The translations under genes and the position numbers were made by a program. The notes under the pieces are model-generated. The model worked only from the letters and a program-made list of their open reading frames with translations, searched no databases and was not told the origin of the DNA. This document shows, one piece after another, positions 29,311-34,583 of a stretch of 64,000 nucleotides of DNA; the first letter of the stretch is position 1; each line of letters opens with the position of its first letter. Origin of the DNA: a virus; the IMG/VR virus record IMGVR_UViG_3300043788_000040, positions 1-64,000 of that record; one strand, 5' to 3'.

Positions 29311-29958
29311 ATGCCCGTTGGCGCACAGGTCAGGAAATCTGTTTACGATTCGTCCGAGGAGCTTGATCTCGTCCACAAGGCGAAGCACGGGGACGAGACC
29401 GCTTTTCGTTCGCTCTACGATGCGCACCACAGGCATGTGATCGTGACCATCACCCGGTTCGTCAAGGACGACGATGCGGCGATGGAAGCCACCAACACCG
29501 CTTTTTTCAAAGCTTGGAAAGCACTGCCGAGATTTGAGGAACAGGCGAAGTTCAGCACGTGGATAACACGCATCGCCATCAACGAAGCACGGATGCTCCT
29601 GCGCACCAACAAGAGAAGGCAGCGTGAAGTATCACTTGACACCCTGTTGTCCTACGGACCGGACGGGGAACGCTACGAGGGTTCTTCTGACGTGAGTTAT
29701 GCGCAGCGCTGGCTGGCAATCCGAGACCTAGAACTTGAAGGCATCGCCGACCGCCAGCTTCTTGAACGTGCGATTGGGAAAGTCCCGAAAAAGTTTCGTG
29801 AGATTCTCCGGCTCCGGTTTTGGGAAGGTCTGTCAGAACGTGAGATTCAGGAGAAGGTCAGTGCCAAGGAGTCCAAAGTAGTCAGCATGTCGGCTGTGAA
29901 GTCCCGCATCTTACGGGGACGCAATTTGCTCATTGAACAAGTTGAACAAATTTCATAA
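29311..29958 (+). CDS. ECF-type RNA polymerase sigma factor
   Basis: Region 2 GDETAFRSLY...FFKAW..L.RF...FSTWITRIAIN; region 4 AVKSRILRGR. Confidence 0.9.
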   Translation: MPVGAQVRKSVYDSSEELDLVHKAKHGDETAFRSLYDAHHRHVIVTITRFVKDDDAAMEATNTAFFKAWKALPRFEEQAKFSTWITRIAINEARMLLRTNKRRQREVSLDTLLSYGPDGERYEGSSDVSYAQRWLAIRDLELEGIADRQLLERAIGKVPKKFREILRLRFWEGLSEREIQEKVSAKESKVVSMSAVKSRILRGRNLLIEQVEQIS

Positions 29959-29975
29959 CGAGAGGACTTTTATCC

Positions 29976-30317
29976 GTGTACAACAAAGAGTTTTCACCCC
30001 GACCGGGCGAACGAGAAGCTGTCATAGGCGATGTTTCTACTCCCCTGTCCTTGGGCTTCCACCTGAGGATCGCGCAGCCCCACGTGGACATGCTGAACGA
30101 GTTGCCGATGTTCCGTGACCTGACCACGGCGAAGCTTTTCACGCTGCTCCCGAAGAAGTACCACAAGTTCGTGCCGCCAATCGGCGAGGATTTGCAGATC
30201 AGGGAAGCGGCATTCCAGCGGGAAGAGCGCATGGCACGGGCGGTCATAATCGGCTTGATAGCAAAGCCGGAGCACATTGAACAGCATCAGGCGCAGAGAT
30301 TCCTAGAACGGCTGTAA
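29976..30317 (+). CDS. Hypothetical protein
   Basis: GAGGA RBS before GTG. Confidence 0.6.
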   Translation: MYNKEFSPRPGEREAVIGDVSTPLSLGFHLRIAQPHVDMLNELPMFRDLTTAKLFTLLPKKYHKFVPPIGEDLQIREAAFQREERMARAVIIGLIAKPEHIEQHQAQRFLERL

Positions 30318-30337
30318 CCGAGGGCGAAAGATTCCCC

Positions 30338-30375
30338 TTGACAACTATCATCAAAAATGAGAATATCAGGTATTA
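30338..30375 (+). promoter_or_regulatory. Putative promoter(s) of the tRNA operon
   Basis: TTGACA 30338-43 with a weak -10 GAATAT at 17 nt; phage GTATT motif at 30370-74. Confidence 0.45.
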
Positions 30376-30384
30376 GGTAGAGAC

Positions 30385-30525
30385 ATGAGCTTCCTCAACG
30401 CCAATTCGACAGCAGCCGACACCATCTTCGGACGGAACGTAGTCGCCTGCGCAGGTACGGTCGCCGCTGAAGCGGCGGCGGTGAATGAGGGAGATACCAT
30501 GTCCCTTGGAGGGTTTGGCGAGTAA
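30385..30525 (+). CDS. Leader peptide (46 aa) of the tRNA-array attenuator
   Basis: MSFLNANSTAADTIFGRNVVACAGTVAAEAAAVNEGDTMSLGGFGE*; 25/46 codons are GNN; stop lies inside the antiterminator. Confidence 0.75.
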   Translation: MSFLNANSTAADTIFGRNVVACAGTVAAEAAAVNEGDTMSLGGFGE

Positions 30526-30555
30526 CTAGAGACCAAACCAAAGATTCCAAGGGAC
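30501..30555 (+). promoter_or_regulatory. Antiterminator hairpin
   Basis: GTCCCTTGGA(30501-10)/TCCAAGGGAC(30546-55) 10 bp plus GGTTTGG/CCAAACC 7 bp; shares 30549-55 with the terminator. Confidence 0.8.
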
Positions 30556-30587
30556 GAACCGAAAGATGGTTCGTCCCTTTTGTTTTT
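30549..30587 (+). terminator. Intrinsic terminator (attenuator) just upstream of the first tRNA
   Basis: AAGGGACGAACC/GGTTCGTCCCTT 12 bp stem plus TTTTGTTTTT. Confidence 0.85.
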
Positions 30588-30589
30588 GT

Positions 30590-30666
30590 ACCCGGTTAGC
30601 TCAGTTGGTTAGAGCGCTACTCTTACAAAGTAGAGGTCGTGAGTTCGAGCCTCACACTGGGTACCA
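30590..30666 (+). tRNA. tRNA-Val(TAC)
   Basis: Cloverleaf, CTACT-CTTACAA-AGTAG, TTCGAG T-loop, CCA. Confidence 0.95.
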
Positions 30667-30675
30667 GTTTTCTGT

Positions 30676-30750
30676 GGGTCGGTAGCATAATTGGGAATGC
30701 GCCTCTCTTGCAAAGAGGAAGATGGAGTTCGAATCTCCCCGTATCCACCA
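30676..30750 (+). tRNA. tRNA-Ala(TGC), bulged acceptor stem
   Basis: CCTCT-CTTGCAA-AGAGG, G3:U70, CCA. Confidence 0.85.
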
Positions 30751-30755
30751 AATTG

Positions 30756-30833
30756 TGCCGCCCCGGACGGCAGAGCAGCCGGAGCCTTCGGGCTACGGTG
30801 TTGGAGCGCATAGGCTCCTTAAGCATCCGGGCG
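30756..30833 (+). ncRNA. Unassigned structured RNA (possible pseudoknot)
   Basis: Three hairpins including a UUCG tetraloop; loop CCCGGA complementary to downstream TCCGGG. Confidence 0.45.
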
Positions 30834-30843
30834 AAAAATTTAT

Positions 30844-30920
30844 GGAGATGTAGAGGAGAGGCCGTCCTCAGGTCCCTGTCACGGACCAAATCGTGGGTTC
30901 GAATCCCATCATCTCCGCCA
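30844..30920 (+). tRNA. tRNA-Asp(GTC)
   Basis: GGTCC-CTGTCAC-GGACC, G73, CCA. Confidence 0.93.
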
Positions 30921-30925
30921 AATTT

Positions 30926-31142
30926 GGCAAACCTGCCCCAGTAGAACGGCAGCGGTGGCTGTGCAGAAGCCGGGGACAAGTGCCGATTGCATGATCGGGG
31001 ACCAAAGCTTTTCAGCCCGCGAGTGGGGCGTGACCTCTGCAAAGGGAACGTTTCGCTGATCCTAGTGGATAACGCGGGGAAGAACCACATGAGCTTGCAG
31101 GCAAGTGTGGGAGCGAGGTGCGATCCCTCCAAGATTGTTTGT
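30926..31142 (+). ncRNA. Unassigned ~215 nt multi-hairpin RNA
   Basis: Serial hairpins and a 3' T-arm-like element between tRNAs; no credible ORF. Confidence 0.4.
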
Positions 31143-31217
31143 TGCGGCGTACCCAAGTGGTAAGGGAGAGACCTGCAAAGTCTTTATTCGGGAGTTCGAT
31201 TCTCCCCGTCGCATCCA
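31143..31217 (+). tRNA. tRNA-Cys(GCA)
   Basis: GAGAC-CTGCAAA-GTCTT, U73, CCA. Confidence 0.93.
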
Positions 31218-31218
31218 C

Positions 31219-31295
31219 GGTGGCACGGTCCAGTTGGAGTGGACGCCTCCCTGTCACGGAGGAGAACGCGGGTTCAAGTCCCGCTGTCACCGCCA
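31219..31295 (+). tRNA. tRNA-Asp(GTC)
   Basis: CCTCC-CTGTCAC-GGAGG, CCA. Confidence 0.95.
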
Positions 31296-31310
31296 AGTTT
31301 AGGAGAGACG

Positions 31311-31523
31311 GTGAGGATTCTCTACGACGAGCAGCGGCATCTAATAGCAGTGCCGTACAGCGTGGAGAATCTTCACAAGGCAGCCGAGGTGCTGGGTATT
31401 AAACGCTGCTGGTTTCACAAAGACCACTATGACATTCCAAAGCGCATGGTTGCGCGGATGCCGGAGACAGTGGCAGAAAAAGTTTCGCCGCGAGAGATAG
31501 CGAGGATTGTACGCGGCAAGTGA
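31311..31523 (+). CDS. DUF4031-like small protein
   Basis: AGGAG RBS + GTG; HL....ENLH..A..LGIKR.WF...HYDI motif. Confidence 0.65.
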   Translation: MRILYDEQRHLIAVPYSVENLHKAAEVLGIKRCWFHKDHYDIPKRMVARMPETVAEKVSPREIARIVRGK

Positions 31524-31527
31524 GTTT

Positions 31528-31603
31528 GCTACGGTCGGCAAGTTGGAAAGCTATCTGCCTGCAAAGCAGACATACGTGGGTTCGAACCCCACCCGTAGCT
31601 CCA
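31528..31603 (+). tRNA. tRNA-Cys(GCA)
   Basis: TCTGC-CTGCAAA-GCAGA, U73, CCA. Confidence 0.9.
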
Positions 31604-31607
31604 AATT

Positions 31608-31956
31608 TGTACTGAGTGGGACAATCGCCGCCGCGCAAGCGGGGGAGGAAAGTCCGGGCACCATAAGCAACCGTACCAGTTAACGGCTGGGCATCCGGGT
31701 CAGAAACGGATGACGATTAGAGGACAGTGACGAACCGATTCAGTTCGGGTGAGACGACCAATCTCTACGGGGTGCAATCTCAAATAGGCCGTGAGTCCTG
31801 CTTGGACGAACAACGTCGGCGAAAGCCGATAGCAAACGGCGGGTTGAGAGCTTGAGGCGTGCAGCGATGCACGTCCTAGACGAATGATTGTCACCGTTCT
31901 GCATCTGGCGCAAGCCGATTGGAACGGTACAGAACCCGGCTTATAAACTCAGTACA
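31608..31956 (+). ncRNA. rnpB: RNase P RNA (bacterial type A-like, compact)
   Basis: P1 TGTACTGAGT/ACTCAGTACA; GAGGAAAGTCCGGGC (31645-59); ACAGAACCCGGCTTA (31929-43); P2 GACAATC/GATTGTC. Confidence 0.92.
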
Positions 31957-31963
31957 GAGTTTC

Positions 31964-32037
31964 GCGGAACTAGCTCAATGGTAGAGTCTCGGTCTTCCAA
32001 ACCGAGGACGCGGGTTCGATTCCCGTGTTCCGCTCCA
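31964..32037 (+). tRNA. tRNA-Gly(TCC)
   Basis: TCGGT-CTTCCAA-ACCGA, U73, CCA. Confidence 0.95.
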
Positions 32038-32042
32038 AGATT

Positions 32043-32118
32043 GGGGCTGTAGCTCAGTTGGGAGAGCGCATCCATGGCATGGATGAGGTCAGGGGTTCGA
32101 CCCCCCTTAGCTCCACCA
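32043..32118 (+). tRNA. tRNA-Ala(GGC)
   Basis: CATCC-ATGGCAT-GGATG, G3:U70. Confidence 0.95.
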
Positions 32119-32130
32119 GTTTTGTAGTTC

Positions 32131-32206
32131 GGGGAAGTAGCTCATTTGGGAGAGCGCATCGTTCGCAACGATGAGGTAGCGGGTTCGACCCCCGTCTTCT
32201 CCACCA
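32131..32206 (+). tRNA. tRNA-Ala(CGC)
   Basis: CATCG-TTCGCAA-CGATG, G3:U70. Confidence 0.95.
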
Positions 32207-32219
32207 GTTTTGTAGCAGT

Positions 32220-32297
32220 GCGCTGTTAGCTCAGCCCGGAGTGAGCGCTTCCTTGACATGGAAGAGGTCAGAGGTTCAAATCCTCTACGGCGCACCA
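32220..32297 (+). tRNA. tRNA-Val(GAC)
   Basis: CTTCC-TTGACAT-GGAAG, CCA. Confidence 0.93.
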
Positions 32298-32305
32298 GAT
32301 TTTAT

Positions 32306-32347
32306 GCCGGAGGTCGGAGAGATACCGACACAAACTCTCCGGCTCCA
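32306..32347 (+). ncRNA. 42 nt tRNA-like minihelix ending UCCA
   Basis: GCCGGAG/CTCCGGC 7 bp + T + CCA, internal GTCGG/CCGAC hairpin. Confidence 0.55.
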
Positions 32348-32351
32348 GATT

Positions 32352-32426
32352 GGCCCGGTCGTCTACTGGCTAGGACATCAGCCTTTCAAGCTGGGGAAGG
32401 GGGATCGAAACCCCCTCGGGCTACCA
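32352..32426 (+). tRNA. tRNA-Glu(TTC)
   Basis: TCAGC-CTTTCAA-GCTGG, CCA. Confidence 0.92.
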
Positions 32427-32435
32427 AATTTGAGG

Positions 32436-32510
32436 GCGCGATTAGCTCAGTGGGAGAGCGCTCGCTTCACACGCGAGAGGTCGCAGGTTCAAACCCTGCA
32501 TTGCGCACCA
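32436..32510 (+). tRNA. tRNA-Val(CAC)
   Basis: CTCGC-TTCACAC-GCGAG, CCA. Confidence 0.95.
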
Positions 32511-32542
32511 GTTTTGCGGTACTATAGTAGAGAGGCTTCAAA

Positions 32543-32616
32543 GCGGAATTTGCATAATGGTAGTGCGAGACCTTGCCAAGGTCTAGGCACGGGTTCGATT
32601 CCCGTATTCCGCTCCA
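32543..32616 (+). tRNA. tRNA-Gly(GCC)
   Basis: AGACC-TTGCCAA-GGTCT, U73. Confidence 0.95.
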
Positions 32617-32631
32617 AATTTTGAGTAGTAC

Positions 32632-32705
32632 GCGGGCGTGGTTCAATGGTAGAATTGGAGCTTCCCAAGCTTCGGACGTGGGTTCGATTCCCATCGCCCG
32701 CTCCA
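32632..32705 (+). tRNA. tRNA-Gly(CCC)
   Basis: GGAGC-TTCCCAA-GCTTC, U73. Confidence 0.95.
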
Positions 32706-32719
32706 GATTAGAGGCTCTC

Positions 32720-33424
32720 TTGGAATCGCTGTACAACGTCAACGGACTGATCTTCTGGGGTGAGCGGGAGATCAACGCACGCAAGATAGTGGAGAGCCAC
32801 TTAGTTCAGGCGGTCAAGGACAGCCTGAAGAGCATGAACCGGGCGTGGGAGTTCTTCCAGGTGGAGGCTCCGATCCTGACGCCAAAGCCGTTCGTGAACC
32901 CGAACTACACGGACGAGGACTTGTTTGCGACAGGCGGCACGGCGAAGGACAGCGACGGGACGGATGTGGCGCTGATTGCCCGTCCTGAGACCACAATGGG
33001 TTCTTACGCGTGCGCGAGGTACCTGTTGAACCCGCACAACGAAACAAAGGTGCGGATGCCTCTGGTGGTCTGGCAGCATGGCAAGAGCTTCCGGCGTGAG
33101 CAAGACCAGCCGACAAAGTTCATGCGGCTGAAAGAGTTTAACCAGCTTGAGTTTCAGTGCATCTACAGTCCGACGACTGCGATGGACTACAGCTTGAAGC
33201 TGCTCGCGGATGTCGCCATCGCGCTGACGAAGTTGGTAGGCGAGACGAGGATCACGCCGAGCGATAGGCTGCCGGACTACAGCGAGTCCACGATAGACAT
33301 TGAACACGCTGAGAGCGGTATGGAGCTTTGCTCCTGCTCAAGGCGCAAGGATTTTGAAGGTGCGAAGGTTCTAGAAGTTGCGGTGGGCACCGACCGCGTT
33401 GTGAAACATTTTCTGGGCGTGTAG
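32720..33424 (+). CDS. Glycyl-tRNA synthetase-like class II aaRS catalytic core (no anticodon-binding domain)
   Basis: GAGG RBS + TTG; VEAPILTP, RPETT, motif 2 SFRRE...MRLKEFNQLEFQ, motif 3 EVAVGTDR. Confidence 0.75.
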   Translation: MESLYNVNGLIFWGEREINARKIVESHLVQAVKDSLKSMNRAWEFFQVEAPILTPKPFVNPNYTDEDLFATGGTAKDSDGTDVALIARPETTMGSYACARYLLNPHNETKVRMPLVVWQHGKSFRREQDQPTKFMRLKEFNQLEFQCIYSPTTAMDYSLKLLADVAIALTKLVGETRITPSDRLPDYSESTIDIEHAESGMELCSCSRRKDFEGAKVLEVAVGTDRVVKHFLGV

Positions 33425-33490
33425 CTCAACTGGGAGAGCGCGTGCTTTGCAAGCATGAGGTAGCAGGTTCGACCCCTGTCACGTCCACCA
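33415..33490 (+). tRNA. tRNA-Ala(TGC)
   Basis: CGTGC-TTTGCAA-GCATG, G3:U70; overlaps the aaRS-like stop codon. Confidence 0.95.
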
Positions 33491-33495
33491 ATTTT

Positions 33496-33571
33496 GGGGC
33501 TATAGTGCAGCGGCCTAGCACATCACCCTCTCACGGTGAAAACGCGGGTTCAAATCCCGCTAGCCCTACCA
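33496..33571 (+). tRNA. tRNA-Glu(CTC)
   Basis: TCACC-CTCTCAC-GGTGA, CCA. Confidence 0.95.
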
Positions 33572-33618
33572 ATTTCAAACCCATAGTGTGATTGTTTGTC
33601 GCCGGGATGCGACGCCCT

Positions 33619-33780
33619 ATGGACAAGCGTTGTCTGCACTGTAACGAAGTGATGGATGATGAGCGCGAGAAATACGTAGGCGTTTGCTTCCGGTGCCGCA
33701 GGTTCGGGCTTCTCACCGGAAAATTCCCCAAAAGCTTGGAAGAAAGAAAACGTTGGGAAGAGGGTCTTAAAAACGGCTGA
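33619..33780 (+). CDS. Small Zn-finger protein
   Basis: CLHC...CFRC. Confidence 0.5.
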   Translation: MDKRCLHCNEVMDDEREKYVGVCFRCRRFGLLTGKFPKSLEERKRWEEGLKNG

Positions 33781-34042
33781 TCCAGCGCCGCCCGAGCCGC
33801 CCGGCTTTCTTGGCAGCACGAGTAGCCGTCCTTCCGGCCTTAGGGCAGTCAATCAGTTTCGCCGAGCAGCGTGGAAGCTCCCCGCCCCTCGGACCCGCCC
33901 CGAAGTACTTTCCCGGTCTCCCGCAACCATACTGGCACAGGACTTCCCCGGATTCTGGCGTGTTCATGCGGTGGTCAAACTCCTCGTCGGTCTCTGCTGG
34001 CTGAGTGTCCTCGGGGAAGGCGGTCTGGAATTTCTCGTCCAT
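33767..34042 (-). CDS. Hypothetical protein with CxxGC motif
   Basis: CQYGCG...C......C; fills the gap between divergent genes. Confidence 0.5.
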   Translation of the reverse strand: MDEKFQTAFPEDTQPAETDEEFDHRMNTPESGEVLCQYGCGRPGKYFGAGPRGGELPRCSAKLIDCPKAGRTATRAAKKAGRLGRRWISRF

Positions 34043-34076
34043 ACTGAAGATTTCAGTATTTGGTAGAGAGGTTTCT

Positions 34077-34583
34077 ATGGCTAAAGCAAAGGCTCAATTG
34101 AAGGTCATTTACCACGAATTCTTCTGCGACGACGTGCTCAGCGAGTTTGACGGGTTCTTTGAGATCGTCAACGGCAAGGTGGAGTACGTCACCGGGTGGT
34201 TCGCCAACGACGCCAACTGGCGCGGCGAGTACATGGGCGGTCTGATAGAGCACTTCGGCGGTGACGTGCAATCCCTGCCTGAGAAGCACTACAAAGCAGC
34301 CCGCACCTTGGCGGCGAAGGCCTACGGCATAGATGAGCAGGAAGACCACGACGGTGAGTACGAGTACGTCCAGCTTTACTTCCGCAAGGGAACGTCCGAC
34401 AAGGTTTACTACATCAACCTGTCCCGTGACGACAACGGCTGGTTCGTCAACGTAGAGTACGGGCGTCGCAACGGTACTCTCAAGGACGAGATGAAGTGCG
34501 AGGCGACCCACTACACGGAAGCCAAGGGAATTTACGACAGCATTCTGAACGAGAAGCTCAAGAAAGGCTACAAACGCAAGTGA
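34077..34583 (+). CDS. WGR-domain protein
   Basis: LYFRKGTSDKVY.I...WFV.VEYGRRNG....EKLKKGY. Confidence 0.75.
   Translation: MAKAKAQLKVIYHEFFCDDVLSEFDGFFEIVNGKVEYVTGWFANDANWRGEYMGGLIEHFGGDVQSLPEKHYKAARTLAAKAYGIDEQEDHDGEYEYVQLYFRKGTSDKVYYINLSRDDNGWFVNVEYGRRNGTLKDEMKCEATHYTEAKGIYDSILNEKLKKGYKRK

Follow-up and report, generated by a model that had tools for sequence, protein, structure and literature searches.

An array of tRNA genes for every GNN codon plus cysteine in an uncultured huge phage, with a putative codon-matched attenuator in front of it

In IMG/VR record IMGVR_UViG_3300043788_000040, a viral contig whose first 64,000 nucleotides (nt) are called here the window, 16 transfer RNA (tRNA) genes follow one another on the plus strand between positions 30590 and 33571. 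The same 16 genes were called by ARAGORN and by the Rfam model RF00005 (49-70 bits, cut-off 29), and with 16 genes in 2,982 bp of one strand the run has the density of a phage tRNA array. They are set out below in order.

30590..30666, plus strand: tRNA-Val (TAC), first gene of the array
30676..30750, plus strand: tRNA-Ala (TGC), short form, with G3:U70; 79% identical to its ortholog in the relative G001 (see below)
30844..30920, plus strand: tRNA-Asp (GTC)
31143..31217, plus strand: tRNA-Cys (GCA) copy 1, with U73; 80% identical to its own ortholog in G001
31219..31295, plus strand: tRNA-Asp (GTC) copy 2
31528..31603, plus strand: tRNA-Cys (GCA) copy 2, 55% identical to copy 1
31964..32037, plus strand: tRNA-Gly (TCC)
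32043..32118, plus strand: tRNA-Ala (GGC)
32131..32206, plus strand: tRNA-Ala (CGC)
32220..32297, plus strand: tRNA-Val (GAC)
32352..32426, plus strand: tRNA-Glu (TTC)
32436..32510, plus strand: tRNA-Val (CAC)
32543..32616, plus strand: tRNA-Gly (GCC)
32632..32705, plus strand: tRNA-Gly (CCC)
33415..33490, plus strand: tRNA-Ala (TGC) copy 2
33496..33571, plus strand: tRNA-Glu (CTC), last gene of the array

Fourteen of the 16 tRNAs have C at position 36 (C36), which under standard wobble lets them decode every one of the 16 GNN codons; the remaining two are the divergent tRNA-Cys copies. An earlier note on this DNA had listed the anticodons as Val TAC/GAC/CAC, Ala TGC x2/GGC/CGC, Asp GTC x2, Glu TTC/CTC, Gly TCC/GCC/CCC and Cys GCA x2, and ARAGORN and RF00005 return exactly this list; its claim that 14 C36 tRNAs cover every GNN codon, with Cys as the sole addition, is also upheld by both callers. 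Miscalled anticodons would, according to the note, refute its claim; the calls agree with the acceptor ends. All four tRNA-Ala have the G3:U70 identity element, the three tRNA-Gly share G1-C72, C2-G71, G3-C70 and U73, and the discriminators are U73 in both tRNA-Cys, G73 in both tRNA-Asp and A73 in the three tRNA-Val. Because these identity elements fit the anticodons, miscalling is excluded. CCA is encoded in all 16 genes, and the end of the Ala-TGC gene starting at 30676 was corrected to 30750 once the discriminator and CCA were counted. What the note had missed within the array are a ribonuclease P (RNase P) RNA, three open reading frames (ORFs) and a tRNA-like minihelix.

The whole contig, G000 below, has 170,563 bp and 56% G+C, is estimated to be 54% complete and carries replication and nucleotide-metabolism genes. 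Its 31 tRNAs lie in three plus-strand clusters:

30590-33571, plus strand: array A1, GNN decoders and Cys
68.5-70.7 kb (68467-70662), plus strand: array A2, Tyr and five Leu
75.0-79.7 kb (75052-79681), plus strand: array A3, four Pro, three Met and two Phe

A blastn comparison with 50,697 phage records gave scattered single-tRNA matches only and no related array among isolated phages. With a synthetase-like ORF embedded in the array as query, eight uncultured huge-phage loci were found, the closest (74% identity) in G001, a relative of 463,033 bp that is rated 100% complete. This genome has 68 tRNA genes by ARAGORN and 69 Rfam matches in six clusters that make up seven units. Three clusters are syntenic with A1, A2 and A3 and equally spaced; the other units are four Ser with Leu-TAA, Trp/His/Arg/Asn/Gln/Lys, Ile/Thr/Gln, and amber suppressors with Lys, the last two being parts of one minus-strand cluster. 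Three probes, namely the leader signature described below, a universal 15-mer from the P4 helix of RNase P RNA and a 22-mer of RNase P RNA specific to the clade, led to four more viral and 17 metagenome contigs. The viral contigs related to the array measure 100-463 kb.

Two of the G001 units have peculiarities of their own. Unit c2 (87.7-94.7 kb) has as its robust members Trp, His, Arg, Asn, Gln and Lys, the exact set of six amino acids with side-chain nitrogen; in the calls for its Asn, Gln and Arg-CCT tRNAs the variable arms are unusually long (87-88 nt), and two of its genes are atypical tRNA-like sequences. At about 238.7-239.7 kb, on the minus strand, three amber-suppressor tRNAs (CTA), Lys-TTT and two odd tRNA-like genes stand together with no recognisable leader. 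This sub-array may be a sign that TAG is read through or recoded in this group of phages.

The grouping of GNN decoders with Cys is far from chance, and it is specific to one phage clade. GNN decoders make up 14 of 16 tRNAs in the G000 array and none of 15 elsewhere (Fisher p=5e-7), and 13 of 15 in the G001 array and none of 50 elsewhere (Fisher p=6e-12), both p values being inflated because isoacceptors cluster. A permutation test of anticodon clustering, which the earlier note had proposed, finds the grouping non-random at a more conservative level: with whole amino-acid families permuted among arrays p=5e-4 (5 of 10,000), and 1e-3 when second-base classes are also allowed. Each window tRNA has its own ortholog in the G001 array at 70-87% identity, including both Cys and both Ala-TGC, and membership of the array is therefore older than the split of these phages. 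Twenty-two arrays of the clade together hold 254 tRNA genes, of which 218 are GNN decoders, 34 Cys and two Phe. Random mixes of anticodons in related arrays, which according to the note would speak against its claim, are thus not found, with 252 of the 254 genes being GNN or Cys. Gene order is another matter: the 22 arrays have 11 non-nested orders, at least eight of them from full-length arrays. Val is always first, and the junction running from Cys through RNase P RNA to Gly (TCC) is nearly unchanged.

The only two genes of the 254 that are neither GNN decoders nor Cys are Phe-GAA genes at L042 6048-6123 and at L109 (oriented) 2104-2179, and the latter takes the slot before RNase P RNA that is otherwise always filled by Cys. 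They were considered as mutated Cys genes and this was rejected, both being ordinary Phe-type sequences with no alignment to Cys genes. Phe codons in the leaders do not discriminate either as a record of these intrusions, since the window leader has three Phe codons and its array no Phe tRNA.

It could be supposed that the grouping arose mainly by recent duplication and remoulding of anticodons. This was rejected, as the bodies of tRNAs from different families are only about 55% identical. Inter-family identity is 0.546 within arrays and 0.522 between them, an excess (0.02-0.04) that is partly due to the shared anticodon base.

The earlier note had read the GNN pattern as one part of a genome sorted by first codon base, and had predicted separate ANN, CNN and UNN arrays. 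These are present in neither G000 nor G001, where all other units mix first bases, and Cys (UGY) is part of the GNN unit throughout the relatives. In the arrays of more distant relatives Gly has Pro and Tyr as neighbours, and Asp has Lys and Asn. Among 13 phage arrays from outside the clade, blocks for different amino acids adjoin by first base no more often than expected (33 observed, 42.2 expected, p=0.97), and neighbours for the same amino acid are three-fold enriched (51 observed, 17.5 expected). The tRNA genes are not sorted by first codon base genome-wide, and the GNN look of the unit reflects which amino-acid families were placed in it. The idea was attractive, and its correction removes a generalisation that was wrong. 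Of the codon-class regulons that the note had proposed, the part that survives, by computation only, is that of separately promoted units with matched leaders; codon class as the sorting rule does not. Its expectation that each array would have a matched leader of its own fared well, as a promoter-like site and an ORF enriched in cognate codons are predicted before nine arrays, three in G000 and six in G001.

There is still a strict form of the idea, in which sorting by C36 is real and has a function of its own, either as codon-class regulons or as a tRNA reserve in defence against a C36-recognising host nuclease or toxin. It would account for the presence of all five GNN families, and no other but Cys, in the unit across 22 arrays, and for the family-level permutation result of p=5e-4. 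It is nevertheless barely credible given that both genomes lack ANN, CNN and UNN units, that two A36 Cys tRNAs are constant members and that in unrelated phage arrays neighbours do not tend to share a first base (p=0.97). We know of no C36-specific toxin, and none was found in literature searches, which covered few subscription journals.

A partition by type or supply of amino acid, with leaders that would report the state of aminoacylation, would serve rather better. If the units were divided by type of amino acid or tRNA, the structure of the genetic code would itself give rise to the GNN pattern. The window unit combines small and acidic amino acids with Cys, c2 has the six with side-chain nitrogen, and all families with long variable arms (Ser, Leu, Tyr) are in two units, c1 and c5; first codon bases are mixed in every unit except that of the window. 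Gly and Cys are both made from serine, which would suit their joining. However, Ser is not placed with them, Gln and Lys recur in other units, Pro+Met+Phe and Ile+Thr+Gln have no obvious common chemistry, and a shortage of amino acid is not relieved by extra tRNA. As these groupings were also recognised post hoc, we consider this partition rather unlikely.

Upstream of the first tRNA gene the sequence has a compact series of putative control elements:

30338..30376, plus strand: promoter-like site, with TTGACA at 30338-30343, 17 nt including TG, GAATAT at 30361-30366 and a second -10-like hexamer, TATTAG, at 30371-30376
30385..30525, plus strand: putative leader ORF, 46 codons and TAA, its codon list read from the sequence
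30501..30511, plus strand: predicted antiterminator 5' strand, contained in the leader ORF, whose stop follows four codons (12 nt) later
30545..30555, plus strand: predicted antiterminator 3' strand, overlapping the first 7 nt of the terminator 5' arm
30549..30589, plus strand: predicted intrinsic terminator, with a 13-pair stem (7 G-C), a 5-nt loop and a T-run that stops one base before tRNA-Val

A strict sigma-70 consensus scan of 29800-34200 found no promoter, the site described having a perfect -35 and a TG-extended poor -10 (3 of 6 positions). The same TTGACA-17-TAnnnT layout also stands before A2, A3 and the G001 units c1, c2, c3b and c6, and c5 has a promoter-like site with a variant -35 (TTGCAA). 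Directly upstream of the array promoter, at 29311-29958, is a gene for a sigma factor of the extracytoplasmic function (ECF) type (Sigma70_r2, r4_2; phrog_1740); no equivalent long ORF was seen upstream of the G001 array.

The codons of the window leader resemble the array that follows it. It contains 15 of the 16 GNN codons and one TGC, and in codons 19-37 as many as 17 of 19 are GNN or TGC. Codons cognate to the array account for 26 of 45, compared with 36.6% of the phage's own codons, and all 13 anticodon species of the array are covered. The membership of the unit, that is all Val, Ala, Asp, Glu and Gly isoacceptors and two Cys, equals the codon set that is concentrated in the leader core. 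Eight diverged variants of this leader in the clade keep the frame, each has exactly one Cys codon within a core rich in Val, Ala and Gly codons, and in each the stop codon lies 4-6 codons past the pairing strand.

This match extends to the other units. Nine arrays in the two genomes (A1-A3; c1, c2, c3b, c4, c5, c6) each stand behind a promoter-like site and an ORF of 22-46 codons, and the start codon is recognisable in all nine. When leaders and arrays were compared in a matrix of codon matches, corrected for phage codon usage, the true pairing ranked first of 720 in G001 and first of 6 in G000. Enrichment of each leader in the codons of its own array has p between 1e-2 and 5e-6 (Fisher-combined 3e-13 for G001), and the anticodon species covered are 13/13, 5/5, 5/5, 5/5, 10/12, 6/6, 11/12, 5/5 and 5/6 (combined p=1.7e-4). 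The Tyr/Leu leader uses CTT, CTA, CTG, TTG and TAT and does not use TTA, which is confined to the leader of the Leu-TAA unit, where it stands alongside eight Ser codons spanning all six Ser codon types. The Trp/His/Arg/Asn/Gln/Lys leader has both Lys and both His codons, AAT twice, CAG, TGG and all four CGN codons, and it is to this unit that the four Arg CGN tRNAs belong. In the Ile/Thr/Gln leader there are ten Thr, three Gln and three Ile codons. There is thus before these units a short ORF, placed after a promoter-like site, whose putative regulatory codons are cognate to the products of the unit.

An intrinsic terminator is predicted between leader and first tRNA in eight of the nine arrays; the detector recovered five of five control modules, and the terminators of c5 and c3b were recognised by eye. 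In the clade of the window array its position is kept in all members with enough upstream sequence. The competing antiterminator of the window is a duplex of 11 bp between 30501-30511 and 30545-30555 (-20.1 kcal/mol), and the inner hairpin of its fold spans the leader stop codon. Across nine distinct sequences the native duplexes have 10-12 bp and -18 to -22 kcal/mol; shuffled leaders gave -7.6 +/- 2.6 kcal/mol and reached the native mean in none of 2700 trials. The paired strands fall into two sequence classes, GTCCCTTGG with CCAAGGGAC, and GTCCTCGG with CCGAGGAC or CCGGGGAC. Pairing energy is -19.7 within a class and -12.9 across classes, so that the coding segment covaries with the terminator. 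The minimum-free-energy fold is the antiterminator in two clade members, and in the others the terminator wins narrowly. The sequences thus allow a mutually exclusive antiterminator that uses the 3' part of the leader ORF. The predicted order of promoter, leader, terminator and antiterminator is the anatomy of classical attenuation. In two clade members (L042 3620-3737 and L033 40-150) the terminator is separated from the first tRNA by a further structured element, about 110 nt in length and with a long terminal helix.

We suggest that the array is probably the largest of several separately controlled tRNA-supply regulons of an uncultured huge phage, gated by ribosome-mediated attenuation. The observations on which this builds are the gene content, its conservation, the codon match of leader and array, and the alternative pairings with their covariation. 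In the proposed mechanism the leader would be translated, and scarcity of any cognate aminoacyl-tRNA would cause the ribosome to stall in the leader core. Segment 30501-30511 would then be free to pair with 30545-30555, formation of the terminator would be blocked and RNA polymerase would enter the array. With an adequate supply the ribosome would reach the stop codon and mask 30501-30511, and the terminator would form. It is from the anatomy of the attenuator that we infer this direction of control, in which stalling opens the array. On a wider scale, the phage might possess a distributed sensor of tRNA supply, about 70 tRNA genes in some seven regulons, each opened by stalling of ribosomes at the codons of its own leader; the case for this we regard as evenly balanced. 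Depletion of host tRNAs by anticodon nucleases, host shut-off or a mismatch in codon usage would be sensed codon by codon and exactly the missing tRNAs would be made, which is where the benefit to the phage would presumably lie.

It could also be that the arrangement is a product of history only. The combination of GNN and Cys might be a frozen accident kept because rearrangement occurs within arrays only, the upstream ORFs would not be sensors, and the hairpin might simply terminate an upstream unit, or serve in 5' processing or stability. Very fluid order with fixed content is what local rearrangement predicts, the frequent same-amino-acid neighbours of unrelated arrays (51 against 17.5) point to local duplication as a force that shapes arrays, and GNN families are slightly more alike than families of different arrays (0.557 against 0.516). 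Such a history gives no account, however, of the codon fit between nine leaders and their respective arrays (rank 1 of 720), of the single Cys codon surviving in eight diverged leaders, or of a leader segment that covaries with a terminator arm; and tRNA bodies only about 55% identical between families give no sign of recent remoulding. We hold it to be improbable.

Less probable again, and in our opinion very unlikely, is that the units are plain operons, separately promoted for different stages of infection, with the codon match of the ORFs being irrelevant. The sigma factor gene at 29311-29958 would suit this, and so would the many tRNAs that huge phages are known to carry (Al-Shayeb et al. 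2020, cited in PMC8172020). Yet one type of promoter (TTGACA-17-TAnnnT) before all units argues against different temporal classes, and a strong terminator between promoter and first tRNA would be senseless in a simple operon.

Several points weigh against attenuation of tRNA supply, the explanation favoured here. Extra tRNA is no cure for starvation of an amino acid, and the logic holds only if the amount of tRNA is limiting. If rearrangement is purely local, membership could stay the same passively. Enrichment of single leaders is moderate, with 19 of the 45 window leader codons non-cognate, and the G001 sub-array of three amber suppressors and Lys has no leader. The A3 hairpin has a weak T-run and was missed by the terminator detector, and G001 c6 has only a hairpin without a T-run, recognised by eye. 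No clear Shine-Dalgarno sequence precedes the leaders; they may be leaderless or short-leadered. The leader system also appears to be confined to one clade: no leader module was found in relatives at a greater distance (51-57% identity in the embedded ORF) or in some 75 other phage loci with the detector that recovered five of five positive controls, many of these loci being fragments and the evidence correspondingly weak.

The array also includes an RNase P RNA:

31609..31959, plus strand: RNase P RNA, bacterial class A (Rfam RF00010, 181.3 bits, cut-off 100, model positions 1-367)

It begins 5 nt past tRNA-Cys and ends 4 nt ahead of tRNA-Gly (TCC), and in the clade a Cys gene is nearly always directly upstream of it. 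In its 351 nt both P4 strands are intact and P1 covaries, and the P4 15-mers are invariant in 12 phage copies. The specificity domain is incomplete, as a stretch of 45 model positions (P13/P14) is reduced to 3 nt and P12 from 24 to 10; the P13/P14 block is missing in G000, G001, L042 and L074 and retained in other phage copies. No match to the RnpA protein (PF00825) was found in G000 or in the complete G001, so that the protein subunit would have to come from the host. Copies of RNase P RNA that pass the Rfam cut-off (108-300 bits) occur inside the tRNA arrays of at least 13 other large viral contigs, typically 0-5 nt from tRNAs. Where tRNAs abut the ribozyme in this way, their processing would also release it. 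No paper on a phage RNase P RNA was found in the same literature searches. On a 202-kb viral contig a group I intron (RF00028, 68 bits) is found at L052 3325-3528, some 3 kb away from that contig's RNase P RNA.

In all three G000 arrays the encoded CCA of nearly every tRNA is followed at once by a conserved trailer in which one or two purines precede a T run (AATTT, GTTTT and AGATT are examples); this trailer may be a signal for 3' processing. It is possible to see how an array transcript would mature if attenuation let it be made. The precursor would be cut at the 5' ends of tRNAs by RNase P, with phage and/or host RNA and the host protein subunit, and also at the CCA-RRTTT trailers, and the same cuts would free the RNase P RNA. 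The GNN unit would in this way couple tRNA supply with the ribozyme that matures those tRNAs.

The remaining elements of the array are these:

31311..31523, plus strand: small ORF with a DUF4031 domain (Pfam PF13223, E=2.9e-12; phrog_4887), with a GTG start at 31311 after AGGAG, as read from the sequence
32720..33424, plus strand: ORF (about 234 aa) for the catalytic core of a class II aminoacyl-tRNA synthetase, nearest solved relatives glycyl-tRNA synthetases (GlyRS)
32306..32347, plus strand: tRNA-like minihelix of 42 nt, with a 7-bp acceptor-like stem, a 5-bp/7-nt hairpin, discriminator U (U73) and CCA, then the usual trailer
30921..31142, plus strand: 222-nt spacer ending in CCA and a tRNA-type trailer just before tRNA-Cys, with a fold z-score of only -1.8

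The ORF with the synthetase core scores 28.5 bits with Pfam tRNA-synt_2b, just below the cut-off of 29.3, and matches PDB GlyRS chains at E=1e-5 over chain residues 175-290 or so only. No anticodon-binding domain was found in its approximately 234 aa, and it has therefore one of the two parts, core and domain, of a full GlyRS. It is 51-74% identical across eight huge-phage loci (L003-L010), mostly inside tRNA arrays, and immediately 3' of tRNA-Gly in the window and in G001. In the Sinorhizobium phage Phosso a similar stretch is annotated as a serine-tRNA synthetase. The minihelix region (32298-32351) folds at -19.4 kcal/mol (z=-3.7). The spacers 30921-31142 (222 nt) and 30751-30843 (93 nt) have no ORF and are absent from compact relatives such as L074; both may be decayed tRNA-like inserts, the longer being possibly a decayed tRNA-like or an unknown RNA.

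Phage tRNA genes are usually explained by the matching of codon usage or, more recently, as spares against host defences that cleave tRNA, and to our knowledge almost nothing is known of their regulation. The present analysis establishes that all the tRNAs needed to decode one quarter of the code can be kept together by a phage, as a unit whose membership is fixed across diverged relatives, and it ties a phage-borne RNase P RNA to a defined operon context. If the leaders attenuate, these units would form a self-contained feedback loop in which decoding capacity is gauged for each codon separately, a classical mechanism put to a new use. It would be the first leader-peptide attenuation of tRNA genes and would explain the fixed sets of tRNAs, of which GNN and Cys is the largest. 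Such leaders would also be ready-made codon-specific sensors for synthetic biology and a handle on the limits of translation in infected cells.

The closest known mechanism is the leader-peptide attenuation of the enterobacterial trp, his, leu, thr, ilvGMEDA, pheA and pheST operons (PMC1183508, PMC3082878). In common with these, the phage units have a promoter-proximal ORF rich in putative regulatory codons, a predicted intrinsic terminator ahead of the genes under control and a mutually exclusive antiterminator whose 5' strand is in the end of the ORF, and several amino acids would be sensed at once as in the thr and ilv leaders. Unlike them, the phage units would regulate tRNAs and RNase P RNA, not biosynthetic enzymes or synthetases. 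Their leaders also differ in having no long runs of a codon: as many as 13 anticodon species, belonging to six amino acids, are represented, most of them by one or a few codons each. Several parallel units, each with a codon set of its own, occur in one genome. The literature searches found no report of attenuation before tRNA genes, nor of sorted tRNA arrays. T-box riboswitches likewise let the state of a specific tRNA decide between terminator and antiterminator, but they bind uncharged tRNA directly, need no translation and control genes for synthetases and amino acids; no Rfam match to a T-box was found in the window.

Among tRNA clusters, those of T4, the mycobacterial arrays (PMC5966550), those of huge phages with up to about 70 tRNAs, and the array units of bacteria and plasmids have the same dense run of genes on one strand, with adjacent isoacceptors, interleaved small ORFs and a mobile genome as their setting. 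The units described here differ from known phage clusters in having fixed membership and matched leaders, and in that one of them has every GNN decoder and an embedded RNase P RNA. The closest functional precedent is the L-array of Anabaena sp. PCC 7120, a long tRNA array that is induced under translational stress (PMC8421152); the idea common to both is an inducible supernumerary set of tRNAs for times when translation is impaired. The L-array is a single mixed unit regulated through direct repeats in its promoter and a presumed repressor, and the words leader, attenuator, terminator and RNase P do not occur in the paper that describes it (PMC8421152). With respect to class A RNase P RNA (RF00010; M1 RNA of E. 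coli), the window copy is the same in its full-length match, invariant P4 strands and covarying P1, and different in being encoded by a phage and bounded by tRNAs, with a short P12, without P13/P14 and without a phage RnpA. Taken as a whole, the array is best seen as joining two known things, phage tRNA arrays and leader-peptide attenuation, in a new form.

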